Part shown: in pieces, positions 1 through 15,403 of the stretch
Numbering within the stretch: position 1 is the first letter of the stretch
How the letters are laid out: the number at the start of each line of letters is the position of its first letter
DNA from: an uncultured archaeon
GTDB lineage: Archaea; Asgardarchaeota; Thorarchaeia; Thorarchaeales; Thorarchaeaceae
Reading direction: 5' to 3'
Assembly: GCA_964458565.1 (NCBI GenBank)
Contig: CAYWJO010000064.1
Coordinates: 1 to 15,403 of the forward strand
Length of the DNA stretch: 15,403 nt
Notes under the pieces: generated by a model
What the model was told of the DNA's origin: nothing
Database searches by the model: none
The model's input: only the letters and a program-made list of their open reading frames with translations
Position numbers and translations under genes: made by a program

Positions 1-72
1 TCGCTTCACGGACTCGTCTAAGCGAACACCGTGTAGAAGGCTGGCGCCCTATCCGGGCTAGGCAACGGGCCC
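1..72 (-). tRNA. tRNA-Arg(UCU) with 32-nt BHB intron at 37/38; cut by the window edge (possibly the intact gene)
   Basis: Reverse complement of 72..34 = GGGCCCG TT GCCT AGCCCGGATA GGGC G CCAGC CT TCT A (acceptor 5' strand, D-arm with GG, anticodon stem, U33, anticodon TCT at 37..35, A37). Intron 33..2 = CACGGTGTTCGCTTAGACGAGTCCGTGAAGCG forms a BHB: CTTC/GAAG central helix, 3-nt bulges TA|C and CG|A, outer helix ACGG/CCGT. Confidence 0.9.
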
Positions 73-102
73 TTAGTGCTTCGCATTGCGTTTTTGGTCA
101 TG

Positions 103-126
103 TTTGACTTAAAGAGTCTTCGATAA
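103..126 (-). promoter_or_regulatory. Putative tRNA promoter (BRE + TATA TTTAAG), copy 1
   Basis: 24-mer TTTGACTTAAAGAGTCTTCGATAA is identical in all four repeats; on the minus strand it reads CGAAGACTC-TTTAAG about 35 nt upstream of tRNA G1. Confidence 0.7.
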
Positions 127-370
127 TAATCCATTTTCCCAATTTGGGTTAGCAAACTCAAATCGTTGCGTAGTAAGCAGACTAAAAGTGTGACTTGCAT
201 AGTACCTAGAGTTGCTGGAGTATATGAGCGAGAACACAAGTGTCAGAATGAAGTTGTCATCATCATCTGTGCACTATTTTCTTTCTTCTTCGTAAATTAG
301 TTGCATTATTTTCCATTTTTATCAATCAAGGTACGCATATTTTATTTTAATAATAAAAAAAAAAAAACAG

Positions 371-386
371 TTGAACTTATATTCAA
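371..386 (+). promoter_or_regulatory. Putative TATA box inside a palindrome, TTGAA-CTTATA-TTCAA
   Basis: About 38 nt upstream of ATG 420; identical at 5158-5173; followed by SD-like GGAGTG. Confidence 0.55.
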
Positions 387-419
387 AAGACATTATATTA
401 TCTTGGAGTGTAGTGAGAA

Positions 420-2717
420 ATGAGACGAACCTCTAAGAGAATTGCTGTGTCATTACTATCCGTAGTAATCCTTGTGTCTTTGAACATCACATCGGTATCT
501 GCCAGTTATGAGCAACTTACCGAGATCTCTGCCAACCCAATCAAGGTGATAGGGTCGCAACGTAACTTCACAGAGAACATCATGAATGTATACATCTGGA
601 TAGAAAATTGTCTCGATCAACCAATCATGGTCAAGGGAAACCTATCAGTACCAGATACCTTCGAGCTAGGTCTTGAGCGTGAGAATGGAATCGATTTCGA
701 TAAGGAAGGAAATATTCAGTTCTGGTCAGTGCTAAAGCCGAAGGATGTAAAATCCTCGGAAGAACCATTCAAGCTTGTAACAGATGAGATCTTCTTCATC
801 GAGCCCACTCAATTTCGCATAACTCTAGAATGGGCATATGTCAATGGGAGAGAGATTGATTGGCATAAGGTCACAGAGATCATTTATCCCGCCCGAGATA
901 CAAATTCTGATTCAGGTGATGGTGGACTACTCCGTGCTACCTTTGGTGTAGATTCGGTATCAGTCTCAGGAGAATCGACGAACAGTGACAAGGGTACTCC
1001 AATCCATTTTGTGGTGACATTCATCAACTGGGGAACTACATCTACTGGTACATTATATGTGAACATCAAGATAAGCGAGGACTCAAACTTATACCTTGGT
1101 TTCGATCAAGGTGTCTGGGCTTTCTCTGGGAATGGAAAGAACACTGGGAAATCCTTGCGTGCACCACGTTGGTATGAAGACTTTGTTCTTGGGACATATC
1201 ATCTGTATCTGGGTCCATATCTGACTGACGATGATAGAGGAATCTGGGCTCTCAATGGGATGACCCGAGTGAATGGGACATGTGTTCCGGAACCCTTGGG
1301 ATATAAAGGAACACGGGCAACCTGTTGGAGTGCAACAAAGGGAGCCGGAAATTCGGAGACTGGCACATGGAATTTCAATGTCAATGACACTGGAGATCAT
1401 GACATCTTTGTTGCAACAATAAGGGACAATTACTGGGCAGAGATGAGTTCCTATTCAGATGAAACTGAGTTCTTTGAATTTGCTGTTAATTATCCTATGG
1501 TGATTGGCTATGGGATAGACAACGATAGTGATGAAAGCAGCTTTGCAGACTGGTTTGATTTCACGTTCCATACAAAACATATCGACACATTGACATGGGA
1601 TGATGATGCCATAAACATAGATTCTTCTGATTTGAGACCAGAAGCCAAATTTCGGACTGCTGATTTGCTAGGAAACACACTGGGGATTGGTTCTGCAATG
1701 TGCTCAGCTCATCTTGACAATGGTGATGTGTCTACTCATCCAACAGGAGAAACATTCACCATGAGAGAGAATCATGGATTCGATATTGGATTTATAGGTA
1801 TCCCCAAGATTGGAGTGGGAGGTGTAAATCTTTCAAGAGGCACAGGGGCTGTATGGACAGTTGATGCAGCAATTGCTATCGCCATGGTGAATCCTGAACT
1901 ATCTCTTTATTTCAACCAGACTATAGGGAAGACCATTCATGAATTGACTCACCTCTTCAGTGGTATCCATCTGAATTCCACGGAGCTTGGCTATGCATGT
2001 ATCATGGCTGCAAATAACACACATGGTGATCACACAGGCAAGCACCAACTCAGAATGAGCACATTGACTGAAGGAAATATCTCACTCTCGTACAATCTAT
2101 TACAATTTGCAGGTGCTGCACGTCCCATGACTATTGCCAGTCAGAAATACGGGCAATGGGGTTGTCATGCGTTCTTCATGTTCACATCACCAACTTCTCC
2201 TATACAATACATGGACAACCCAGGTGGACCAAACGAATACTTTTGGGAGTATACCGGATGGTATGATTATTTCAACGTGGCAAATCAACGTAGTATGACC
2301 AATACCACTGCTGACAACAACGATGTCAATGAGTCCTACTATTATGTGGGGTATAAGCTCTATTTCAATTCAACTTTCTGGCCTACAGGATTCGATTCCA
2401 GTTCAACACAGCTGAAAGTGAACTTCAAAATGGAGGTTTCAGCGATAGCAGATAGTATTCAATATCGCTATGCATATGTGCGTCTCCTTGATGATGATAC
2501 TCAAAATCCATCCTCCCTTGGAGAGTGGTCATATGATTTTGCAAACAATGGCGACGTTGAAAAGCACACCGAGGTGAGTTCAGCATTCACTGATACTGAT
2601 ACAACTGTCTGGTTGCTGATTGGGCTTGAGGATGATACTTCGGATGACTATCACCAACAGGTGTATACATGGATAAAATGGATGGACATGCTCTATGAAT
2701 ATGGATATACACCCTAA
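420..2717 (+). CDS. Secreted zinc metalloprotease-like protein (metzincin-type)
   Basis: 765-aa ORF; signal peptide ending VSA; HELTHLFSGIH (three-His metzincin spacing, nt 1938-1970) followed by a CIM Met-turn-like motif (1998-2006). Confidence 0.7.
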   Translation: MRRTSKRIAVSLLSVVILVSLNITSVSASYEQLTEISANPIKVIGSQRNFTENIMNVYIWIENCLDQPIMVKGNLSVPDTFELGLERENGIDFDKEGNIQFWSVLKPKDVKSSEEPFKLVTDEIFFIEPTQFRITLEWAYVNGREIDWHKVTEIIYPARDTNSDSGDGGLLRATFGVDSVSVSGESTNSDKGTPIHFVVTFINWGTTSTGTLYVNIKISEDSNLYLGFDQGVWAFSGNGKNTGKSLRAPRWYEDFVLGTYHLYLGPYLTDDDRGIWALNGMTRVNGTCVPEPLGYKGTRATCWSATKGAGNSETGTWNFNVNDTGDHDIFVATIRDNYWAEMSSYSDETEFFEFAVNYPMVIGYGIDNDSDESSFADWFDFTFHTKHIDTLTWDDDAINIDSSDLRPEAKFRTADLLGNTLGIGSAMCSAHLDNGDVSTHPTGETFTMRENHGFDIGFIGIPKIGVGGVNLSRGTGAVWTVDAAIAIAMVNPELSLYFNQTIGKTIHELTHLFSGIHLNSTELGYACIMAANNTHGDHTGKHQLRMSTLTEGNISLSYNLLQFAGAARPMTIASQKYGQWGCHAFFMFTSPTSPIQYMDNPGGPNEYFWEYTGWYDYFNVANQRSMTNTTADNNDVNESYYYVGYKLYFNSTFWPTGFDSSSTQLKVNFKMEVSAIADSIQYRYAYVRLLDDDTQNPSSLGEWSYDFANNGDVEKHTEVSSAFTDTDTTVWLLIGLEDDTSDDYHQQVYTWIKWMDMLYEYGYTP

Positions 2718-2819
2718 TTCCAAGTTAAGGGTGCATCATCATCAAATCCTTTATCTCGTTTTTATCCGAGATTTTCCAGATGATATTGCCTTTCTAATGC
2801 GAACGGAGATGAAAACGCG

Positions 2820-4718
2820 TTGAGGATTAAATGTGCTATCTTAACCATCGCACTTCTACTTGGAGTACTACTCACAGTTTCAGATTGCACTGGATATCAT
2901 TTTGAGTTTCTTGAATCCGATCAATGTACTTATAGTATGATGGCTTATCAAATCCATCCCAAGTATACTAATGTTTCTGATAGCCTTTTGTACTCAACCC
3001 TCATTGGAGGAAACAGGGACGAATCTATAAGTTCAGTCTGTGTTGTACAAGGTGATGAAGTCTATATTGCAGGACCCACAGGCTCTCTTGATTTTCCCAG
3101 AAATATAGATGAATACGGATATCCGAATGGTAGCTATATGCCTTCGCAATCGGATTGTTTTATTCTAAAGATGAATCATTCAGGGCTTGTCTTCGCTGCA
3201 TTTGTTGGTGGTACTGGAAATGACTATCCATATGATATAGTCTTAGATGGAAAAGGAAACATCTATGTGACTGGTTCTACATGGTCAAGTAATTTTCCAG
3301 CAACAACATCCTTTGGTGACTGGCAAGTTGGGATTGACTGTTTTGTCTTCAAGCTGAGTCCGAATGGTGATAAACTCCTCTATTCAACGGTCATCAGGGG
3401 TAACAATGAAGAGCGTGCTATGGCCATTGATGTTGATGATGCGGGATGTGCCTACATCACAGGTTATACATTCTCACGTGACTTTCCTATGGCAGATGCT
3501 TTAGATGACTCGTACGGCGGAAATAGACTGACTGATTGCTTCATCACAAAGCTGAACCCTACTGGTGATGAGATTCTCTACTCGACATATTTTGGGGGTT
3601 ATGGAGGGGAACAGGGGAACAGTATCTTAGTTAACGAGCAGGGTTATATCTACATAGGGGGATTCACTACCTTTGATATTCCCTTGGTAAATGCGTTCGA
3701 CGACACATATGGAGGTCATCGGGATGGGTTCGTTGCAAAATTGACTCCATCAGGTGATGACGTGGTATTCAGCACCTATCTGGGAGGGTCAGGTCGAGAT
3801 TATGTACAAGACATCGATGTTGATGTAGAAGGGAATGTATATGCTACAGGATATACTGACTCGATTGATTTTCCCTTACATAATGCCTACGACTCCGAAA
3901 TTGATAATGATCAGTGTTTTGTCCTAGGGCTCAACAGTACGGGAAACGGACTTCTGTATAGCACCTATCTGGGTGGTTCAAGTGAAGACATAGGTCAGTC
4001 TATCCGGGTAGATGCGGGTGGTTATACCTATGTGGCAGGAGAGACCAGATCATCAGATTTTCCAACCTTATTGGCGTATGATAACACATCCAATGGAGGT
4101 GTGGACTCTTTTGTTTCTAGGTTTTCTCCTGAAGGTGACAAGCTCATGTACTCTACGTTTGTTGGAGGGTCTGGTAATGATTGGACCCGCGGACTTGCTA
4201 TTGACGAGTATGGAACCGCATATGTGTGTGGGTTCACAATATCTTCAGACTTCCCTCTAGTCAATCCACTTGATTCCGTTCTAAATGGAAGTGATGACGG
4301 TTTCTTGTACAAACTCGCAGACTTTAGTGACAGTGACAATGACACTCTGAGTGAATATCAGGAATCACTCTATGGCACCAATCGTTTTTCAGCTGACACT
4401 GATAATGACACTCTCGGTGATGCAGAAGAGATCTTTCTATATGGTACTTCACCATTGCTTGCTGATAGCGATAATGACACCTACGATGATGCGTGGGAGA
4501 TAAAATACGGATTCAACCCGTTGGACCCACTGGAACCAATGAGGACAATACAGTCACAGCAACTCATTCTGATGAGTGCTGCTGTCATGGTAGTATCCAT
4601 TCTTATTACTGCTGTACTCATACTTTGGCACCGCGCAAGAAGAGCGAGGATGAAAAAGGAAGAACTGGAGTCTGAGGAGAGAGAGGCAATACATGGTCTG
4701 GTAGGTGATGAGAACTAA
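2820..4718 (+). CDS. Membrane-anchored SBBP (beta-propeller) repeat protein with DxDxD Ca-binding-like repeats
   Basis: TTG start; N-terminal hydrophobic signal; about 7 repeats of YSTYLGGSGxD...I.VD..G..YV.G.T.S.DFP; DSDNDTL-type repeats; C-terminal TM followed by a basic then acidic tail. Confidence 0.85.
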   Translation: MRIKCAILTIALLLGVLLTVSDCTGYHFEFLESDQCTYSMMAYQIHPKYTNVSDSLLYSTLIGGNRDESISSVCVVQGDEVYIAGPTGSLDFPRNIDEYGYPNGSYMPSQSDCFILKMNHSGLVFAAFVGGTGNDYPYDIVLDGKGNIYVTGSTWSSNFPATTSFGDWQVGIDCFVFKLSPNGDKLLYSTVIRGNNEERAMAIDVDDAGCAYITGYTFSRDFPMADALDDSYGGNRLTDCFITKLNPTGDEILYSTYFGGYGGEQGNSILVNEQGYIYIGGFTTFDIPLVNAFDDTYGGHRDGFVAKLTPSGDDVVFSTYLGGSGRDYVQDIDVDVEGNVYATGYTDSIDFPLHNAYDSEIDNDQCFVLGLNSTGNGLLYSTYLGGSSEDIGQSIRVDAGGYTYVAGETRSSDFPTLLAYDNTSNGGVDSFVSRFSPEGDKLMYSTFVGGSGNDWTRGLAIDEYGTAYVCGFTISSDFPLVNPLDSVLNGSDDGFLYKLADFSDSDNDTLSEYQESLYGTNRFSADTDNDTLGDAEEIFLYGTSPLLADSDNDTYDDAWEIKYGFNPLDPLEPMRTIQSQQLILMSAAVMVVSILITAVLILWHRARRARMKKEELESEEREAIHGLVGDEN

Positions 4719-4776
4719 GGTATTCAGCTCACCGCTACTAATGTCCGAGGCGTGCAGACTAAAAGTGTGGCACGCA

Positions 4777-4860
4777 CGAACTCCAACTCGCTTCACGGAT
4801 TCGTCTAAACGAACTCCAACTTAGAAGGCTGGCGCCCTATCCGGGCTAGGCAACGGGCCC
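4777..4860 (-). pseudogene. tRNA-Arg(UCU) 5' fragment, chimeric (intronless junction + partial intron + duplicated 3'-exon piece)
   Basis: 5' exon 4860..4822 identical to copy 1; then AGTTGGAGTTCG (4821..4810), 21 nt of intron 3' part (4809..4789), AGTTGGAGTTCG again (4788..4777); no T-loop or acceptor 3' strand follows. Confidence 0.85.
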
Positions 4861-4889
4861 TTGATGTATCGTATAGCGTTTTGCTCTTA

Positions 4890-4913
4890 TTTGACTTAAA
4901 GAGTCTTCGATAA
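4890..4913 (-). promoter_or_regulatory. Putative tRNA promoter, copy 2
   Basis: Same invariant 24-mer as 103-126. Confidence 0.7.
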
Positions 4914-5157
4914 AACAGGCATGACTCACTATTTGGGTTAGCAAACTCAAATCGTTGTGTAGGATGCAGGCTAAAAGTGTGGCTCGTTCAGAATCCAGAG
5001 TTGTCAGGAGTATATGACCGAGAACGCGAGTGTTTGAGTAGAGTTGTCATCATCTGTGGACTATTTTCTTTCTTCTTTGTATATTATTTGCATACTTTTC
5101 CAATCTTGCCCATCAAAACACGCATGCCGTCTTTTACTTTAATAATAAAAAAAACAG

Positions 5158-5173
5158 TTGAACTTATATTCAA
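5158..5173 (+). promoter_or_regulatory. Putative TATA box inside a palindrome, TTGAA-CTTATA-TTCAA
   Basis: Identical to 371-386, at the same distance from the start codon. Confidence 0.55.
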
Positions 5174-5206
5174 GGGATATTATATTATCTTGGAGTGTAG
5201 TGAGGA

Positions 5207-7282
5207 ATGAGACGAAACTCTAGGAAAATATGTGTGCTACTACTTACTGTAGTAGTCTTTGTGTCAATGAATGTCATGTCGGTATCAGCCAGCTCTATAA
5301 GACCTGGTGAAAATGGATTATCTTCTCCTCAGGTTGATGAATCCATTGATTGGGAAATGATTCCCGACCCTCGTGTGGAGGCTGAAGTCTTAGCTCAGGG
5401 TGAAAAGACGCCTCAGAATGTGCCAGACGCTCCGCGATTGTTCTGGGATGAAGACCTTGGTCGCTGTTATATCAGTACAAACATCCCATGGGATATTTTA
5501 CAGGCTGCAGGTATCAGTCTGGAGGGCAGTTCTATTGAAGAGCGAATTCCCAATGCACCAAGATTTGAGGATGTCTATGATAGGATTCAGAGGATACAAT
5601 CGCTTTCAAATGCGAAATATCCGCGTACATTGTTATATGACCCTGTAGTTGTGATCTGGGTCACTGTACCTGCTATATGGAGCACTGGTGAAGATATCGA
5701 GATCAAGTTCAAGATGTTCAATGAGGGGTACCAGACTGCAACCGCATCCTGTCATTTCTATGGCTATGACAATAGTACTGGGTCTGATGAAGTGGAGTTC
5801 AGTGTAAGTGGGTCCGTCAATATACCCGGTGAATCTTATGGATACAAGACACTGACTGTGGAGATTCCTGAGGAATCAGTGGGGATTAAGCGTGGAATTG
5901 CCACAGCAACAGAAGATGCATCCTACAGTGAGGATATGGGATATGTCTTTGTGCAGAAATTTGGTGAGTTGGATGCGAGTGACCTTCCTGAGGATGATAG
6001 GATGTCATATACTTCAGGTAACGATAATTATTACTGGGAGGGTCTATCAGATATAGATGGATTCAATGTTCAGGTAAATTATTCAAGATATCATCCGTAT
6101 GCATGGAATATCACATGGCTTGCTGGTTGCCTGATAGATACTGAAAATGTTTCTACAATTGATAATGCTGCAGAGTACTTGACAAATGCGACAAATCAAA
6201 AGATGACATATGATTCTAAAGATGACGGGATAATAGACTATTCCCATAGTTCACACTGGTCTGACTTCAAGATTATGAGTGAGAACTTTACTGGTGTGTG
6301 TGATGAGTTTGCCTGTCTTGAAGTATCATTCCTTCGAAGTCTGGGTATCCCTTGTAGACAGATCGGTGGTTCAAGACAGGGCGGGGGTCATAGCTGGCTT
6401 GAATATTGGGGTCAGTTGAACGGTGATTGGTCGTGGATTCATGCAGATCCTACATGGAACAAATATAATCTACCAGCTGGTATCAAGAATCTGAACTATA
6501 CGAACATCAATCTCTATTCATACTGGAATGACAGTTCATATTCAGGTGGCACCATAGATGGTAATTCCACCAATAGAAGACTTGTAAAAAATGATGCAAA
6601 ATACAGTGTTTCATATGATGGACCAAATGACTTTGGTTATGCCTTCATAGATATTTGCGAGGACACACTCTCATGGACATACGATGGAAGTTGGCCAAAC
6701 CCAATATTCTCCATTGGAACTGGAACCCTATATACATCTAATGGGTATCTCAGAGCAGTACCAACTAATCAGGACGGTACAGGACCATTCTATTACCGAG
6801 AACTTGACAATGCTCTTGATATCTATGATTTCAGGAAATTAGAAATTGAAGTTTCATTCAATAATCCCTCTGACTCGTACAAGGGGTGTTTCGCTGTTGC
6901 ACTCTATGACTACTATAAGGAATTCATCTGCTATGTTATTCTCTATGAGTGGAGGGGTGCTCAAGTTGATATGGACTTCTATACAAGATGGTATCTTGAT
7001 AATGGCACAACCAGCAACTATAACGAGTTTGACTATCAGGGAGCCTCATGGCGAGGGATCATCGAGATATACCGAAACGAGACAAGTGGACCCTATGGTA
7101 ACTATTCTGGAGGAATATGGTCATATATCGAGGGATTTGGATATCAGCAGCTCTTCTCAGAATCGGATATTCAGGGTGACCAACGAGAGATCTGTTATAT
7201 TGGCATCCAGTGGAGAAGAGGTTCGGATACATTTCTGAATTACTATCTTCATGATGTTAGGGTATGGGAGTTCACCAGATGA
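5207..7282 (+). CDS. Secreted transglutaminase-like (Cys-His-Asp) domain protein
   Basis: 691 aa; signal peptide; GVCDEFA...LRSLGIPCR...GHSWLE...WIHADPTW (Cys codon 6299, Asp codon 6446) matches the transglutaminase-like core pattern. Confidence 0.85.
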   Translation: MRRNSRKICVLLLTVVVFVSMNVMSVSASSIRPGENGLSSPQVDESIDWEMIPDPRVEAEVLAQGEKTPQNVPDAPRLFWDEDLGRCYISTNIPWDILQAAGISLEGSSIEERIPNAPRFEDVYDRIQRIQSLSNAKYPRTLLYDPVVVIWVTVPAIWSTGEDIEIKFKMFNEGYQTATASCHFYGYDNSTGSDEVEFSVSGSVNIPGESYGYKTLTVEIPEESVGIKRGIATATEDASYSEDMGYVFVQKFGELDASDLPEDDRMSYTSGNDNYYWEGLSDIDGFNVQVNYSRYHPYAWNITWLAGCLIDTENVSTIDNAAEYLTNATNQKMTYDSKDDGIIDYSHSSHWSDFKIMSENFTGVCDEFACLEVSFLRSLGIPCRQIGGSRQGGGHSWLEYWGQLNGDWSWIHADPTWNKYNLPAGIKNLNYTNINLYSYWNDSSYSGGTIDGNSTNRRLVKNDAKYSVSYDGPNDFGYAFIDICEDTLSWTYDGSWPNPIFSIGTGTLYTSNGYLRAVPTNQDGTGPFYYRELDNALDIYDFRKLEIEVSFNNPSDSYKGCFAVALYDYYKEFICYVILYEWRGAQVDMDFYTRWYLDNGTTSNYNEFDYQGASWRGIIEIYRNETSGPYGNYSGGIWSYIEGFGYQQLFSESDIQGDQREICYIGIQWRRGSDTFLNYYLHDVRVWEFTR

Positions 7283-7362
7283 TTTCACAAAGACGTAGAT
7301 TCCTCATTATTGGAGGAATATCTCACATCCACTTGTGATAAATTCTAAATACAAGTCATGAA

Positions 7363-10341
7363 ATGATTACGGGGAGCGATAGAATGGTAATCAATATGTC
7401 AAGAATGAATGAGCGATTGTGGGGATTCTCACTGTTCTTCATATTGGTTCTTCTTCCACATGGCGTATTTCCTAATGTAAATTCTAACGTTAGTCAGGCA
7501 GATGGAGCATCCCAAAATGATGAGTCATTCCAACCATCCATTACACAGGCACTCGACAATGCAGCTCGCTCATTCTTTGTAGAGAACGTGGGGCAAATAA
7601 ACTCCTCCTCAGTGTTATTTTATGGCTATATAGATACATTCTATGTCAGCCTTGGTAATGATGGAATCCAGCTGTACGAATTATCTACAGGCAGGACTCT
7701 CAAGTTAGAGTTTGTTAACTCTCAGGGTCTCGTACTTCACGCATTGGACGCTATGGATGTGAAGTACAATTTCTTTCTTGGTTCAAGGGGAGAATATATT
7801 GATGTAATGTGTTATTCTCATATTTCGTACAAGAATGTCTGGCCGCATATCAATCTCAATATTCGATTGATTGAAAATAGAGTCGAATACGAGTACATTG
7901 TTCGACCGGGAGGAAATGTATCAGACATACAAATTAAGATTATTGAACAAGCGTCTATACCATTCGAAAAGAACGAGATAGAGATAGGTTTGAAAGAACG
8001 CCAAATCGTTGAGGGTTATACTATAGGCAATCAGAAGAATCAACAGATACAGATAGATTTTGTACAGGAGGATATTGATATCTATAGTCTTCAAGTGTAT
8101 GATTATGATTGCTCTTCCACACTTATCATTGATTGTCTGATATATTCTACATATATTGGTGGTTCTGAGATTGATATTGGGAGAGATATTGCAGTCGATA
8201 AGGAGGGAAATATCTATATTACTGGTCGAACAAGTTCGACGAACTTTCCAATCCAAAATGCATATGATTCCACCTATAATGCTGGAACTGCATCTATTAC
8301 GTATGACTGTTTCATATCGAAGATTGATTCTTCGGGAGCGATAGTCTATTCTACATATGTGGGTGGTTTATTTTGGGAGGAAGGAAATGGAATCGCCGTC
8401 GATGACGAGGGAATTGCATATGTCACAGGTGGAACAAGGTCCATTGACTTTCCAACTGTGAATGGGTATGATGAGAGTTTCGGTGGTGGTTCCTATGACT
8501 GTTTCATCCTAATCCTCAATGCAACGGGAAATGGATTAGTTTATTCGACATATTTAGGTGGGGCGTTTTCAGACATGGGCCAGGATATTATAATCGATGG
8601 CGTATCTAATATTTTCATTTCTGGCAGAACTGCATCAAGTTCATTTCCTACTGTCAATGCATATGATGACACCTGGAATGATGGCTATGACTGTTTTGTA
8701 TCGAAGATGAACTCTACAGGTACGGGTCTAATATATTCAACCTATGTGGGTGGAACATTTTCATACACTCCCCCCTATGATGATCGTGATGATGTTGCAG
8801 TAGCTTTGGCAGTTGACACTTTTGGGAATGCCTATGTTTCAGGCTACACGAACTCGTTGTATTTTCCCACTGTCAATGCGTATGATGACACTCTGGGCTC
8901 GTGGAATACCGAGGATTGTTTTGTCTTCAAGCTGAATGCCACCGGCAATGGTCTCATATATTCCACCTACATTGGTGGTACGGGACAGGACCAAGCCACA
9001 GATATTACCATCGATGCTGAGGGATGCGCCTACATCACAGGCCTCACGCAGTCTACAGACTTTCCACTGGTTGGTGCACTTGATTCGACTCTCAATGGCA
9101 CATCGGACTCATTTCTCGTCAAACTCTCTCCAGAAGGAGATCAGCTCCTCTATTCCACCCTTCTGGGTGGAAATGACACCGACTCGGGGCAGTCATTGAT
9201 GTGTGATGCCCTGAACAACATCTATCTTGGCGGTACCACCACTTCGCCAGACTTTCCTGTGGTCAATGGTGTTGAGTATGATGGAAACGGGAGTGCAGAC
9301 TGTTTTGTACTCAAGCTGAACATCACCGCAAACAGCATCATGTACTCAACATGTATGGGAGGTACTATGGATGACTCCCTGTTATCCCTCGTTATCGATT
9401 CTTACGGGACAGTCTATGCCACTGGTAGTACTTATTCCGACGATTTTCCCATGGTTGACCCCTATGATGACACTCAAAACGGAGAGAGTGATGTCTTTGT
9501 GTTCCTGCTTCCAGATTTTGGAGACTCGGATTCAGATGGCATACCGGACTATAATGAGTCTCTCTATGGCACTGACAGGTTCTTAGCTGACTCAGATTTT
9601 GATGGGCTCGGAGACTTCGATGAGATTTTCACGTATCTCACCAATCCGCTCTCGAATGACAGTGACTCTGATGCTCTTGATGACTTTTCAGAGGTCATGG
9701 TCTACCTCACAAATCCATTGAATAACGATTCTGACTCGGACTTCATGAGTGATGGCTGGGAGGTCCTGTACACACTAGACCCACTAGACCCGACTGATGC
9801 TGGCCTGGATTTAGATAATGACACACTCTTGAACCTCGGTGAGTATCAGCATGGTACGCTTCCTGACAACTGGGACACTGACTCTGATTTGATGAGCGAT
9901 GGATGGGAGGTACAATATGGACTGAATCCCCTGGACCCGACTGATGCCACAGGTGATCTTGATGCAGACTTCCTCACGAACTTGCAAGAATATGAGCTTG
10001 GTACAAATCCACGCTCAAGCGATAGTGATCTTGATGGGATTCCAGACAACTGGGAGGTCTCCATGGGATTCGACCCTCTCGATCCCACTGTCCCCCTCAT
10101 AGAATATCTCCTGTACAACCTTCACATCACAATCCTTGTGAGCGTTTTTATTGTAGGTGTTTGTGTTGGGCTCATCTACCGTCTTCGACCCCGTCTGGAG
10201 CGTCGAAAGATGAGGAAGGAACAGGAAGAAGAACACAAGGAGATCGAGGAGGGTATCAGGGATCTGGGAGGGCATGATACAAGAGATACACAGAATGGCA
10301 TAGATGACAGGGAGAACGGTGGAGATACCAAAAAACCCTAG
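7363..10341 (+). CDS. Large membrane-anchored SBBP beta-propeller repeat protein with many DxDxD repeats
   Basis: 992 aa (true start may be a later Met); N-terminal FVENVGQ-type domain typical of SBBP proteins; about 7 SBBP repeats; multiple DSDxDGxxDxxE...GxxP repeats; C-terminal TM and charged tail. Confidence 0.85.
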   Translation: MITGSDRMVINMSRMNERLWGFSLFFILVLLPHGVFPNVNSNVSQADGASQNDESFQPSITQALDNAARSFFVENVGQINSSSVLFYGYIDTFYVSLGNDGIQLYELSTGRTLKLEFVNSQGLVLHALDAMDVKYNFFLGSRGEYIDVMCYSHISYKNVWPHINLNIRLIENRVEYEYIVRPGGNVSDIQIKIIEQASIPFEKNEIEIGLKERQIVEGYTIGNQKNQQIQIDFVQEDIDIYSLQVYDYDCSSTLIIDCLIYSTYIGGSEIDIGRDIAVDKEGNIYITGRTSSTNFPIQNAYDSTYNAGTASITYDCFISKIDSSGAIVYSTYVGGLFWEEGNGIAVDDEGIAYVTGGTRSIDFPTVNGYDESFGGGSYDCFILILNATGNGLVYSTYLGGAFSDMGQDIIIDGVSNIFISGRTASSSFPTVNAYDDTWNDGYDCFVSKMNSTGTGLIYSTYVGGTFSYTPPYDDRDDVAVALAVDTFGNAYVSGYTNSLYFPTVNAYDDTLGSWNTEDCFVFKLNATGNGLIYSTYIGGTGQDQATDITIDAEGCAYITGLTQSTDFPLVGALDSTLNGTSDSFLVKLSPEGDQLLYSTLLGGNDTDSGQSLMCDALNNIYLGGTTTSPDFPVVNGVEYDGNGSADCFVLKLNITANSIMYSTCMGGTMDDSLLSLVIDSYGTVYATGSTYSDDFPMVDPYDDTQNGESDVFVFLLPDFGDSDSDGIPDYNESLYGTDRFLADSDFDGLGDFDEIFTYLTNPLSNDSDSDALDDFSEVMVYLTNPLNNDSDSDFMSDGWEVLYTLDPLDPTDAGLDLDNDTLLNLGEYQHGTLPDNWDTDSDLMSDGWEVQYGLNPLDPTDATGDLDADFLTNLQEYELGTNPRSSDSDLDGIPDNWEVSMGFDPLDPTVPLIEYLLYNLHITILVSVFIVGVCVGLIYRLRPRLERRKMRKEQEEEHKEIEEGIRDLGGHDTRDTQNGIDDRENGGDTKKP

Positions 10342-10396
10342 TTATAGTGGGATAGTGAGCTGTTATGTATAGAGTAGATTAAAAGTATGGTCCACA

Positions 10397-10447
10397 CGAA
10401 CTCCAACTTAGAAGGCTGGCGCCCTATCCGGGCTAGGCAACGGGCCC
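10397..10447 (-). pseudogene. tRNA-Arg(UCU) 5' fragment, intronless
   Basis: GGGCCCGTTGCCTAGCCCGGATAGGGCGCCAGCCTTCTA|AGTTGGAGTTCG: exact exon-exon junction, anticodon stem CCAGC/GTTGG; ends at the start of the T-stem. Confidence 0.85.
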
Positions 10448-10477
10448 ATAGTGCTTCGCATTGCGTTTTTGGTCGCA

Positions 10478-10501
10478 TTTGACTTAAAGAGTCTTCGATA
10501 A
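10478..10501 (-). promoter_or_regulatory. Putative tRNA promoter, copy 3
   Basis: Same invariant 24-mer. Confidence 0.7.
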
Positions 10502-10763
10502 AACAAATCCCATCCTTAACTTGGATATGGCTTGAGGTGAAGTAAGGAGAAGCCTCAGAACTACATTATATACCCTAATACTAAATCAAGAGGGATTCGA
10601 ACTCTTAAATTGGTCATGAGTGTATTACCTTATGGAAATACAATCCAGCGACTGGATGATAAATCTCATCAGAGGTGTTGCTATTATCTAAAGAGGCAAT
10701 GGTACATTATTTAAAAACAAAGTTTATTAAATAAAATTTGAGGAAATAGAATGGGGATTTGTT

Positions 10764-11588
10764 TTGGAAATGAGAAAGTGGATTAGGTATAGACTTAACA
10801 TACTAAATCTAGAACTTGATGTGTCATGGCCATCCTTTGCAATATCTTCCCTAATCGCATTACTTCTCATCACATATTCTATACTATTATTGAATACCTT
10901 CTCAAGTATTCGTACAGGATTTGGACCTGAAGGTCCCAGTAATATACCAAGAGTTGAATTCTTTGTCAATACACTAAATAGAGATACTATCAATGCTATG
11001 GGTATATCGACTTCCATCATGAATTATCTCATTATTTCAATCATCCCTCTTGTTATGTCAATCACATTTGCCAGTTCTTTTGAAAACGGTAACTTGCGAA
11101 ATTTATTATCAATGCCCATTGCAAGGAAGTCAGTATTCTTCATAAAATTCATCATTCTGTTTTCTGTAATCACCATTCCTTCTGTATTCGGTTTATTAAT
11201 TGGTACTTTTTGGTTTTTGCCAAATTCCGCTTCTCTTAAGATTCATGTATTGCTGAGTATTTCTCTGATATTGGTTATTTTTTTCAATACATCTATTTCT
11301 ATGTTAGTCGCTGTTCAAACAAAAAGTCTGATGAAGAGTACATTTCTGAGTCTTTCGATTTGTTATATCTTATTCTTATCCTCAAGCGCGAATCTAATTC
11401 CAGGACTGATGCTTGGCGTAGTAAATCCAATTCATGCAACCAATATTTACCTGGGAATTTTGCCTACAGTACAGGAATTAACATTAGGTCTTAATTTGTT
11501 ACTTCTTTCATTGGAGGGTTGTCTTGTGATATCTCTTCTGTTGTTGACTGTTTCCGTTATCAGTTTCGATAAGATTGAGATTGAATGA
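10764..11588 (+). CDS. ABC-2 type transporter permease
   Basis: About 6 TM segments; SFENGNLRNLLSMPIARKSVFFIKF motif typical of ABC-2 permeases; likely ATG start at 10770. Confidence 0.8.
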   Translation: MEMRKWIRYRLNILNLELDVSWPSFAISSLIALLLITYSILLLNTFSSIRTGFGPEGPSNIPRVEFFVNTLNRDTINAMGISTSIMNYLIISIIPLVMSITFASSFENGNLRNLLSMPIARKSVFFIKFIILFSVITIPSVFGLLIGTFWFLPNSASLKIHVLLSISLILVIFFNTSISMLVAVQTKSLMKSTFLSLSICYILFLSSSANLIPGLMLGVVNPIHATNIYLGILPTVQELTLGLNLLLLSLEGCLVISLLLLTVSVISFDKIEIE

Positions 11589-11614
11589 GGTGAGAAATAC
11601 TGCGTGCTCTCAAT

Positions 11615-12202
11615 TTGATATTTAGTCTGGGTGTGTCCTTTCTGATTATTTCTATTCTCTATGGTAGTACAGCAATATCTGGAAAGCTGCTTTATCAGGG
11701 AGAATATAGTGGTCACTTTGTAGCTGTGACTGAAGGTGTTCATATCCATGCTTGGGGGCAGGATAATAGAAATTTTACATTATATGTTTTGGATTTTGAT
11801 AATGGGTATAAAGCACTCAATGAGAGTTCACTCGAAAATGTTTCGTATGTGTGCATCTATGAGAATGTGGCTTATATAGAAATCAATGTTTTAGTACCTT
11901 CACCAGGTTGGTATGTGATTCTCGTCACACCATCAAATCCTGATGATTCAGTTATAAGATATGATATCATCATTAGTAGAAATGTCCCTCACCTTGGTCC
12001 ATTCTTTCTAGGTTTATTTCTCGTTCTTGGTTGTATCTTATTCAAAGGAAAAAAAGCTATTTCTGAACGAAATTTGTCCTTAGGGATGCCTCATGTTTTT
12101 GGAAATCAAAAGAAGTCTAAACCTGAGCAGCCAAAGTTGAATCTTATTCTCACCATATCTTATCCGGGTAGAAAAAAGTGTATAGGTGATATCTATGTGT
12201 AA
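11615..12202 (+). CDS. Hypothetical membrane protein (2 TM flanking an extracellular domain); paralog of 13910-14431
   Basis: Hydrophobic segments at the N-terminus and near the C-terminus; NRNFTLYVLDFDNGYKALNESSLENVS resembles NRSFTLYLLDYETGIKTLSEQSLKNVS; start uncertain. Confidence 0.7.
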   Translation: MIFSLGVSFLIISILYGSTAISGKLLYQGEYSGHFVAVTEGVHIHAWGQDNRNFTLYVLDFDNGYKALNESSLENVSYVCIYENVAYIEINVLVPSPGWYVILVTPSNPDDSVIRYDIIISRNVPHLGPFFLGLFLVLGCILFKGKKAISERNLSLGMPHVFGNQKKSKPEQPKLNLILTISYPGRKKCIGDIYV

Positions 12203-13121
12203 TGAAATAATGGTGTCCACAAAAGATCTAGTGAAACGTTTCAATAATATCACAGCTTTGGATAAATTGTCTCTGGAGGTTCCTTCTGGTATATTTGGCT
12301 TAATTGGACCTAATGGGGCAGGAAAGACAACACTCTTTCGTATTCTGATTGGTCTCATCTCTCCAGATGCAGGGACAGCTTATGTATGTGGACAAAATAT
12401 TGACGCACATCTATTAGAAATCAGACAACTAATAGGTGTACTTCATGAGCGTCCAGTATATCCAAAATCTCTTTCCGCAAAGCACTATTTGCAACACGTA
12501 GCAAATCTTTATGGATCCTCAAGTTCTCCGGATGAATATCTTGCATTAGTGGGTTTATCAGAATCAGTAGATAGAAAGATAGGATCTTATTCTGCAGGAA
12601 TGATTCAACGCTTAGGACTTGCTCAGGCACTTATTGGCAAACCAAAACTTGTTCTCCTTGATGAACCAACCTCAAATTTGGATGTTATAGGAAGAGAAGC
12701 CATCTTGAATTTAGTTGTTGACCTTCATCAGAAGTATAAAACATCCTTTCTAATAGCATCGCACATCCTAAGTGATTTGGAAAAAGTATGCACATCTATT
12801 GCCTTTATAAAAAAGGGGAAGGTTATCAAACAGGGAGATATCTTAGATATTGTTTGGAATCAGATGCCAAATGAATTCATCATTGTATTGTCAGATCCAA
12901 CAACATTACAGCAACATATCAAGAATGAGGATGGTATTATTGATACACATATCGCTGGTAGTAGATCATTACTAGTTGAATTAGATGAAGGGTATGAAGT
13001 GCAAGACCTTGAAGATATTGTTTCATTGATTTCAAGTCGTGAAAATATAAAAGTCTATTCAATTGAGAAGCAAAGCTCTCTAGAAGGTACTTTTCGAAGG
13101 GTGATAGAAAATGACTACTAA
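12186..13121 (+). CDS. ABC transporter ATP-binding protein (ABC-2/multidrug-type exporter)
   Basis: Walker A GPNGAGKT, signature YSAGM, Walker B LVLLDEP, H-loop ASH; likely ATG start at 12195 after SD GGTGA. Confidence 0.95.
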   Translation: MISMCNEIMVSTKDLVKRFNNITALDKLSLEVPSGIFGLIGPNGAGKTTLFRILIGLISPDAGTAYVCGQNIDAHLLEIRQLIGVLHERPVYPKSLSAKHYLQHVANLYGSSSSPDEYLALVGLSESVDRKIGSYSAGMIQRLGLAQALIGKPKLVLLDEPTSNLDVIGREAILNLVVDLHQKYKTSFLIASHILSDLEKVCTSIAFIKKGKVIKQGDILDIVWNQMPNEFIIVLSDPTTLQQHIKNEDGIIDTHIAGSRSLLVELDEGYEVQDLEDIVSLISSRENIKVYSIEKQSSLEGTFRRVIENDY

Positions 13122-13929
13122 GCTTCAACGCATGAAATCTCTGGTTAAATTTGAATTAGACGTTTCATTCAAATTTCCTCTACTTGAAATGTTATTTATT
13201 TTCTTTATTGTGATTACTACTGTTGGAGTATACGGTCAATCTCGCACACCTGCATTGTTTATTTTTCCTGGATATGATGTTTCCGAATCTGATGTGGAAT
13301 GGGTTATACAAATCATTGAAGAGATAGATATTCTTCGAGTGTCTGCGCCATTAAATATTATAACACTAATCGTATATTGTATCACGCCGCTTTTAATGTC
13401 ATTTCAAATTGCATATAATATTGAGGTTAATCTATTTAAAAGATATATTTCCTATCCAATCGGACGAAGAACACTAATAGTTTTCAGATTCATAGTTATT
13501 TGGTTTCTCTTTTGCGCTTCAACAACTATAGGGATAATAACTCCTCTCTTTTTCATGGGTGATTTAATCAACCTCGGCGTTATTATTGTCTTGCTCTCCA
13601 CATTTTATTCTACAAGTTTCTTTGTGGTTTCAGCTTCTATTTTAATTGCTGTTGCAACTAGAAAATTTTCATATTCTGTCCTTGGTGGATTGGGTTTGTC
13701 TTCTGTTCTATTAATCGTGAGCTATTTTTCTAGCCAATCATATCTCATTCGAGGAATATGCAATCCAATTTTTCTAGCTTTGGGATTTTTCACAGGTGTA
13801 CCTTTTATTGGAGGCTTTTTTGGAGATATTTTAGTAACAGATGTATTATATAGTATTTTCTTTAATCTCGCATTGGGAATCTGCGTATTCATAATCTCTT
13901 TACTAATAGTTGAAAGGATGGATGTTTAG
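13111..13929 (+). CDS. ABC-2 type transporter permease, paralog of 10764-11588
   Basis: Multi-TM; shares ELDVS, I.PL.MS, P-I-x-R, IAV and NPI motifs with the first permease; overlaps the ATPase stop. Confidence 0.8.
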   Translation: MTTKLQRMKSLVKFELDVSFKFPLLEMLFIFFIVITTVGVYGQSRTPALFIFPGYDVSESDVEWVIQIIEEIDILRVSAPLNIITLIVYCITPLLMSFQIAYNIEVNLFKRYISYPIGRRTLIVFRFIVIWFLFCASTTIGIITPLFFMGDLINLGVIIVLLSTFYSTSFFVVSASILIAVATRKFSYSVLGGLGLSSVLLIVSYFSSQSYLIRGICNPIFLALGFFTGVPFIGGFFGDILVTDVLYSIFFNLALGICVFIISLLIVERMDV

Positions 13930-14431
13930 AATGAATCAAATGAGAACCCAGAAATTCCTCATCATATTTGGAATTACTCTGATTGCACTATCTTATTCAG
14001 CAGTTGTGATTGATTCTTCAAAATCCTTATACATTCAAATTGATGAAGTTGGAGTTTATGAGGGCTTCTTTTTTGAATGTACTAGTATAGAACACATCAA
14101 AGTAACTGAGATAATGAATAGGAGCTTTACACTTTATCTACTTGACTATGAAACTGGAATAAAAACGCTATCTGAGCAGTCACTCAAGAATGTGAGTGTT
14201 CTAGAGTATCATATTGATATAATATCATATGAAGGTGATATTAGCGGTTTAGAAAACCGTTGGCTATCAATCCTGTTAACATTAGGCAATTCAACAGAAG
14301 AGATCCTATGTTATCTAACGATCACAACGAAAGGTCCAGAAATAGGATTGTTTGTTTCTGGTCTTCTATTATCTTCTATTGGACTGGTATGGATAACATA
14401 TGATTACTTTAACAATATAAAAATATATTAG
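13910..14431 (+). CDS. Hypothetical membrane protein (2 TM); paralog of 11615-12202
   Basis: Shared FTLY.LD...G.K.L.E.SL.NVS motif; likely ATG start at 13931 or 13940. Confidence 0.7.
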   Translation: MKGWMFRMNQMRTQKFLIIFGITLIALSYSAVVIDSSKSLYIQIDEVGVYEGFFFECTSIEHIKVTEIMNRSFTLYLLDYETGIKTLSEQSLKNVSVLEYHIDIISYEGDISGLENRWLSILLTLGNSTEEILCYLTITTKGPEIGLFVSGLLLSSIGLVWITYDYFNNIKIY

Positions 14432-14502
14432 TAATACTTTTAAATAATTGATGATATAACCAATTGTACAATATCCTGAATATTGTATAATGAGGTATTA
14501 TA

Positions 14503-15144
14503 ATGTGGTTAAGGAGACTTAAACTCATTTTAGTTATTCTTCTAGCTTTTGGAATGATAATACCAAATGTGTCAGCTTACACATTTACACAAGATGACGA
14601 CTCTGACTATTCTGTTGCGAATGGAGTTTATTCAATCTGGGCATTTGCTGTACGAAGCTGCAATTATGATACGGGTTTAATTGAGGTCATGGGTGCGTGG
14701 GCGAGTGCCAGTTTGCATTATGCCAAGCTGTATATTGGAATGGCTTTCACGGCACCAATATCTGGAAGAGTTCATTGCTCTGCAAAATGGACATTGAATT
14801 ATAAAATTATGGCTGGATTGAATGAGGGTGGTTATGCCAGATTATACATTCGTTACTATCTGCTATCCATTACTCAAAATGAGCTTGAATTTAAGAAGAA
14901 CATATACAAAGATACTGTTACATATGAATCTGGAGGTTATGAAACATCATCGGGCATTATCACTGAAGATGGTAGTAGCAGTGTTTATTGGGATTATCCA
15001 TTGTCAGTAAATACAACTTACTATGCAGCAGTAATGATCTACATAAAATTGTACTATGGTGGCTATGCATTCAGTCAAACAGGTACAATAATTTCCCCTA
15101 CCTATGTTTCTCTTGATGTAAGCGAAATAAATGTCTGGTCCTGA
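14503..15144 (+). CDS. Small secreted hypothetical protein
   Basis: 213 aa; signal peptide ending NVSA; SD-like GAGGT upstream; Tyr/beta-rich mature part. Confidence 0.7.
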   Translation: MWLRRLKLILVILLAFGMIIPNVSAYTFTQDDDSDYSVANGVYSIWAFAVRSCNYDTGLIEVMGAWASASLHYAKLYIGMAFTAPISGRVHCSAKWTLNYKIMAGLNEGGYARLYIRYYLLSITQNELEFKKNIYKDTVTYESGGYETSSGIITEDGSSSVYWDYPLSVNTTYYAAVMIYIKLYYGGYAFSQTGTIISPTYVSLDVSEINVWS

Positions 15145-15165
15145 AGAATAAATATTGACAACAAA

Positions 15166-15203
15166 GAAAGGCTGAGAAAACTCAACCTTTCCTATCTTTT
15201 TTT
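15166..15203 (+). terminator. Hairpin plus T-tract, putative terminator
   Basis: GAAAGG-C-TGAG-AAAA-CTCA-A-CCTTTC followed by T7 (15197-15203), just after the last gene. Confidence 0.55.
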
Positions 15204-15245
15204 AAGTTGTTAATTATTATCTCTCTTACTATGAATGATTTCAAT

Positions 15246-15328
15246 CGAACTCCAACTCGCTTCACGGATTCACCTAAGCGAACACCGTGTAGAAGACTGG
15301 TGCCCTATCCGAGCTAGGCAACGGGCCC
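15246..15328 (-). pseudogene. tRNA-Arg(UCU) 5' fragment with 32-nt BHB intron
   Basis: 5' exon 15328..15290 (3 substitutions vs copy 1), intron 15289..15258 with intact BHB, AGTTGGAGTTCG 15257..15246, then unrelated AT-rich sequence. Confidence 0.85.
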
Positions 15329-15358
15329 TTAGTGCTTCGCATTGCGTGTTTGGTCGTG

Positions 15359-15382
15359 TTTGACTTAAAGAGTCTTCGATAA
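15359..15382 (-). promoter_or_regulatory. Putative tRNA promoter, copy 4
   Basis: Same invariant 24-mer. Confidence 0.7.
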
Positions 15383-15403
15383 AACAATCGATTGGATTTT
15401 TGG

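Follow-up and report, generated by a model that had tools for sequence, protein, structure and literature searches.

The stretch of DNA analyzed here (hereafter, the window) covers 15,403 nt from an uncultured archaeon of the Thorarchaeaceae (Asgardarchaeota; genome G000). It contains two genes for predicted secreted enzymes with a common start, a metzincin-like gene (420–2717; 765 amino acids, aa) and a transglutaminase-like gene (5207–7282; 691 aa), both present as open reading frames (ORFs) with the N-termini quoted in a first-pass annotation of the sequence. The two genes lie in a 15-kb insertion of three integrase-free cassettes (1–4777, cassette 3; 4778–10397, cassette 2; 10398–15246, cassette 1; 4.8, 5.6, and 4.8 kb) that are stacked at the tRNA-Arg(TCT) gene, each starting with the promoter and a 5′ fragment of the tRNA (Table 1). 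No integrase was found among the window ORFs. The gene that follows each enzyme encodes an SBBP surface protein of one family (632 aa and 992 aa), not an immunity gene, and paralogs of all three cargo sets exist elsewhere in the genome (67–78% identity). The common start of the two enzymes does not reflect a purpose-built payload-swapping system; the transglutaminase gene is a one-off fusion between sibling cassettes.

Table 1 Features of the 15,403-nt window, ordered by position
Feature	Position	Strand	Basis or remark
5′ part of intact tRNA-Arg(TCT), anticodon-loop intron	1..72	-	3′ end, with a second intron (in the T loop), on adjoining contig C87
tRNA leader and promoter, TATA-like box 108–113	73..126	-	sequence; promoter role inferred from position
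23S rRNA trailer copy, left end of cassette 3	177..291	+	85% to real 23S trailer on C1
Native promoter/ribosome-binding region and signal peptide of metzincin-like gene	371..506	+	shared with metzincin homolog locus L042, proteins P0002, P0003
Secreted metzincin-like protein: Ig-like domains, HExxH domain (about 345–570), C-terminal CBM-like jelly roll	420..2717	+	TACE match
SBBP beta-propeller surface protein, acidic repeats, C-terminal membrane anchor	2820..4718	+	
Last 43 nt of 23S rRNA (4718–4760) and trailer start, right end of cassette 3	4718..4777	+	98% to C1 23S end
Copy 2: promoter and intronless tRNA-Arg 5′ fragment, intron remnant, second anticodon/variable-loop piece	4773..4917	-	
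Second 23S trailer copy, left end of cassette 2	4966..5089	+	
Metzincin-type promoter, ribosome-binding region, and signal peptide heading transglutaminase gene; fusion at Val-Ser-Ala codons near 5284–5291	5158..5293	+	
Chimeric secreted transglutaminase-like protein, triad Cys365-His395-Asp414 present	5207..7282	+	PF01841 E 3e-11
DUF7948 and SBBP beta-propeller surface protein, C-terminal membrane anchor	7363..10341	+	
Decayed 23S-trailer piece, right end of cassette 2, joint same as at 4777	10374..10397	+	
Copy 3: promoter and intronless tRNA-Arg 5′ fragment	10393..10506	-	
Cassette 1 cargo: ABC-2 type transporter cluster and small secreted protein	10764..15144	+	67% paralog at C7:31.7–36.3 kb
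Copy 4: promoter and intron-bearing tRNA-Arg 5′ fragment, three exon substitutions, beside host DNA (C32)	15246..15387	-	

Positions 1–505 and 4788–5292 share 80.2% identity over 514 alignment columns, with a local alignment score of 516, compared to a maximum of 27 for random genome segments (n = 191). Identity stays at about 0.7–0.9 up to position 505 and then drops to alignment background, the match stopping at codon 29, which confirms the homology through the upstream leader, ending at about 505/5292, that the first-pass annotation had described. The signal peptides are identical at 18 of 29 positions, and this 29-aa head is the sole BLASTP match between the two proteins. The mature parts are unrelated, as had also been proposed, save for one weak match of 38 columns in a beta-sandwich (probability 32%) found by profile comparison. 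Nevertheless, what had been called a conserved promoter is a composite, made of the minus-strand promoter and 5′ part of tRNA-Arg(TCT), the 23S rRNA trailer, and, last, the start proper to the metzincin gene. Of the 419 bases shared upstream, about 290 consist of the tRNA-Arg promoter and fragment, a spacer, and the 23S trailer; these are a cassette border, not the promoter of either enzyme gene. The 5′ 126 nt of the head occur in four copies in the window rather than two (also at 10398–10506 and 15247–15387). The portion that belongs to the gene is limited to about 371–506, a region common to a metzincin homolog from another sample, with which nothing further upstream is shared.

Both enzyme labels stand, at different strengths. 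The product of 5207–7282 belongs to the transglutaminase-like superfamily, with a Cys-His-Asp triad in the PF01841 core and a transglutaminase-like fold; cross-linking and cleavage would both be possible for the predicted enzyme. For the other product, the metzincin-like label is reasonable but not proven. Within its family, HExxH is invariant, the third His and a downstream Met are nearly invariant, and the Gly of HExxHxxGxxH is shifted by one, while 7 of 13 members show weak reprolysin matches. The TACE catalytic domain aligned to the predicted model with a Z-score of 8.3 (root-mean-square deviation 3.8, 186 residues aligned), in a region of the model that is of low confidence. Using the whole model, Foldseek returned beta-sandwich matches only, the catalytic region again being low-confidence, and all leads from an ESM Atlas feature search remained <0.9. 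Both predicted enzymes may act on surface proteins.

This signal peptide is a native feature of metzincin family members: the two closest homologs of the metzincin (P0002, P0003) carry it, and none of eight transglutaminase homologs does. The fusion point, GTATCAGC (Val-Ser-Ala, the signal-peptidase codons, 8 nt), matches in frame a transglutaminase locus (L043) whose gene has its own, different N-terminus and is 80.6% identical to window positions 5328–6207. We infer that in-frame recombination at this 8-nt microhomology made the chimera, although both this match and the 5-nt match at the cassette joints (see below) were taken from alleles of relatives and, at such lengths, neither counts for much singly. 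The event in cassette 2 would have been either a replacement of the metzincin body by the transglutaminase gene or a deletion up to that gene, with a working promoter and export signal kept through the in-frame junction; the fusion would have been retained because an in-frame exported protein resulted. An independent metagenome contig (L047:2630–2646) stops exactly at the signal-peptide boundary (window position 507–508), its last base differing from the window, and this end may mark a point where population alleles diverge.

A shared head could also arise by in-place gene conversion, from the metzincin gene onto its neighbor, between the tRNA repeat and the signal-peptidase codons; the two heads are 4.8 kb apart and both start in the repeat. 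This is very unlikely given that their identity is only 80%, that the copy 2 promoter is the most divergent of all (0.81–0.83, versus 0.90–0.93 among the others), and that the tails of both cassettes share one joint as well. Furthermore, the chimera's signal peptide is no closer to the neighboring metzincin gene (18/29) than to outside alleles (22/29 to P0002).

The first-pass annotation had interpreted the shared head as a chassis for expression and secretion that stays fixed while its catalytic cargo is exchanged, reminiscent of polymorphic effectors. One head on two unrelated enzyme bodies, each followed by an SBBP surface protein, fits this description, and that part of the claim holds. 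The search for other payloads, however, returned none, so that cargo exchange fails within the databases searched: the signal-peptide profile had one match only, to a metzincin homolog, among 1.84 billion representative proteins, and nothing in 85 family genomes, while a search with the leader DNA motif recovered the same locus only. Among 11 head-sharing ORF pairs in the whole genome (2493 ORFs), the pair studied here is the only one with unrelated bodies. Because the signal peptide was otherwise found on metzincins only and no third payload was found, 5207–7282 is a single chimera. In polymorphic toxin systems and the variable lipoprotein families of Mycoplasma, a conserved N-terminal export part is joined to differing C-terminal parts. 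The likeness of our locus to these systems ends there, since it has one alternative body, no family of leader copies, and no cognate small immunity-type gene after either enzyme. The locus is not a polymorphic effector system, and, with most of the leader being tRNA and rRNA sequence, a purpose-built chassis is highly improbable.

The tRNA-Arg(TCT) gene is complete across the join with contig C87 and contains two introns (window 1–72 with L002:3790–3930), as read by hand and against relatives; the 23S gene on C1 was identified with Rfam (E 7e-20). Rfam missed the tRNA fragments and the 43-nt 23S piece in the window, and ARAGORN missed the two-intron tRNA; these were recognized by comparison with longer copies. 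The four tRNA 5′ copies have the same orientation, with the intact gene at one end only (the leftmost copy), whereas the other three break off in the 5′ T stem or at the variable loop. The contig, which the window covers in full, overlaps C87 and C32 by 55 bases. An assembly artefact was considered and rejected: the left join (to C87) is spanned by the independent contig L047, internal copies differ by 5–20%, and the right join, which rests on the 55-nt overlap only, fits the gene order of relatives. In ten relatives, a single tRNA-Arg without fragments lies next to the same radical SAM gene, several of them with variable genes upstream. A candidate second tRNA-Arg array in G076 was discarded, its two matches being overlapping contig ends with full tRNAs.

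Several details of the copies were also observed. The anticodon intron is precisely absent from two spare copies, the promoters of which match the others at 81–93%. Copy 2 is a hybrid (4778–4860), in which an intronless 5′ part continues, from GTTCG on, into the intron's 3′ part; this looks like the deletion of a unit between intron-bearing and intronless copies at a 5-nt match. Before the decayed trailer, positions 10345–10373 resemble an inverted piece of the 23S tail.

Cassettes 2 and 3 have the same head, the same tail joint (23S trailer/tRNA), and a different middle; because head and joint are common to both, they most likely share one ancestral unit, itself part of a 23S-tail array. A truncated copy (78% identity) of most of cassette 3, with 23S tail and trailer, occurs in the same genome (L004; G000:C1:13.3–16.3 kb), where it sits beside a TFB-like gene and far from any rRNA gene.

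Co-oriented repeat arrays were found in this genome on the 23S tail (C1), the 16S tail (C54), and, by self-comparison of the genome, the 3′ end of rps19 (C35:12032–18721). A second tRNA-type array (G000:C47:45–5524), likewise found by self-comparison, has as its repeat the promoter and the first 12–17 bases of another tRNA, so that five unrelated array anchors are present: the 23S tail, the 16S tail, the end of rps19, and two tRNA 5′ ends. Of 43 genomes that have a 23S-tail match, 18 have two or more, the maximum being 15; some of these matches may be extra operons or split ends. In eight relatives the 23S-tail copies are direct repeats around varied cargo. The 5′ ends of 23S-tail fragments are ragged over ~30 bases, a few being longer, and ragged ends also occur at the 16S and C47 tRNA anchors. 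One unit of the rps19 array holds a distant metzincin homolog (C35:16765–18522); a unit between two 23S ends in G030 (L031:328–7941) contains a 550-aa ORF that seems TnpB-like by its start and a 1902-aa ORF; and in G012, a genome rich in arrays, copies of the 23S tail lie ~1.3 kb from a full DprA-family gene (G012:C13:5145–5759).

The best reading of this layout, which we hold with a probability of roughly 0.6, would be homology-anchored capture in which the second joint is illegitimate. On one side, here that of the tRNA 3′ end and its neighbors, DNA arriving from a relative would pair with conserved sequence of the host; on the other, it would join by microhomology inside the RNA gene. The donor would supply a new gene end and the resident end would stay behind as a direct repeat; such repeats would then let units be added, moved, or lost by ordinary recombination. 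A conserved anchor on one side and a microhomology joint on the other, the layout of homology-facilitated illegitimate recombination, are both present: at the 4777 and 10397 joints, the 23S trailer and the T stem as it reads in close relatives have 5 nt in common. The order of events, the joint mechanism, and the mobility of the units are read from sequence alone.

Several points weigh against homology-anchored capture. The ends of the three tRNA-Arg fragments differ by no more than ~5 nt, as a site-specific enzyme would give, and G000 encodes one tyrosine recombinase. Repeats of 60–130 bp at 80–95% identity are short for efficient homologous recombination, and a search of five genomes for DNA uptake machinery gave only partial DprA-family matches, in four of them. 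Moreover, a recombinase could have gone undetected through divergence, and the genomes are not complete.

Tyrosine recombinases (PF00589) were found in 16 of 41 family genomes, the genomes richest in arrays being without a match, and no serine recombinase, reverse transcriptase, or IS110 enzyme was found in the five genomes searched. In 25 of the 41 Thorarchaeota genomes, many of them >95% complete, no tyrosine recombinase, including a clear XerA, was detected. The single PF00589 match in G000 (on C53) scores weakly, far below the cut-off, against XerA/C/D models and does not match IntI models. A trailer-like motif near this gene was tried as an att site and rejected, since it has three mismatches and shuffled sequences give 5–10 such matches.

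These data bear on an alternative in which the cassettes would be satellites that carry nothing but cargo, and a tyrosine recombinase acting in trans (the C53 gene or that of a passing element) would insert them site-specifically at tRNA-Arg. An intact tRNA with displaced 5′ fragments is an island signature (PMC4383910), the fragment ends cluster near the variable loop and T stem, and one recombinase is present in the genome. We consider integration in trans unlikely, because rRNA tails and a ribosomal protein gene show the same layout with ragged ends, close orthologs of the C53 enzyme occur in only 4 of 85 genomes, in a conserved gene context with no adjoining tRNA found, and exact-match scans found neither repeat on any viral contig. 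It is also quite unlikely that an unrecognized dedicated capture pathway (an enzyme or an RNA-guided system) targets the ends of highly expressed Thorarchaeota genes and builds the arrays. The frequency of arrays across the family, the short fragments, whose starts fall within 30 nt of one another at the 23S end, and the failure of known recombinase families to track arrays would fit such a pathway; no candidate gene was identified, however, the anchors have no common sequence, and quick deletion of long repeats would leave short fragments as well.

Homology-anchored capture can be compared with three known systems. Homology-facilitated illegitimate recombination, reviewed for Acinetobacter, Streptococcus pneumoniae, and Pseudomonas stutzeri (PMC2884548), likewise combines one homologous anchor with one illegitimate microhomology joint and requires no dedicated recombinase, but there a resident segment is replaced in competent bacteria, whereas here the gene end is duplicated and units pile up. 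Tandem tRNA islands of the 5′-fragment class (5′ fragments are reported in 159 of 3919 tDNA islands; PMC4383910) resemble the window in having an intact tRNA and displaced fragments in the same orientation, with 5′ fragments upstream and units of ~5 kb. Crossover in tDNA islands is placed at the anticodon loop, the T loop, or the T/acceptor junction; the fragment ends seen here are at the variable loop or in the 5′ T stem. In contrast to those islands, no unit here has an integrase of its own, the fragment includes the promoter, the units hold leftovers of a second anchor type (the 23S tail), and the same layout exists on rRNA tails and on rps19, with ragged ends. Archaeal integrons and clusters of attC sites lacking integron-integrases (CALINs), reported to be enriched in Asgard archaea (PMC9668308), are alike in layout only, with co-oriented cargo units between repeats and often no integrase nearby; our repeats were identified as parts of tRNA and rRNA genes rather than as attC sites, and the units comprise 2–6 genes with their own promoters and no IntI.

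Taken alone, the leader swap is an ordinary event. The array that hosts it lies on tRNA 5′ ends, has no integrase, and holds units from a 23S-tail array; a limited literature search, including a term search of PMC8813620 and PMC11529989, found no published description of such arrays. The locus would record two steps that are rarely seen together, the shift of a cassette from a 23S tail to a tRNA 5′ end and the birth of a secreted enzyme by fusion. A broader proposal would be that the ends of conserved, highly expressed genes (rRNA tails, promoter ends of tRNAs, ends of ribosomal protein genes) form a general, integrase-independent landing system of Thorarchaeota, served by a dedicated pathway, in which cassettes would move from one anchor type to another and, in doing so, recombine signal peptides with enzyme domains; we regard this as unlikely. 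If homology-anchored capture is true, an Asgard lineage accumulates genes for surface proteins and transport in arrays that escape the tools for finding islands and integrons, since those tools need an integrase or attC sites. Because array repeats break metagenome assemblies, the accessory genes of Thorarchaeota are probably undercounted.

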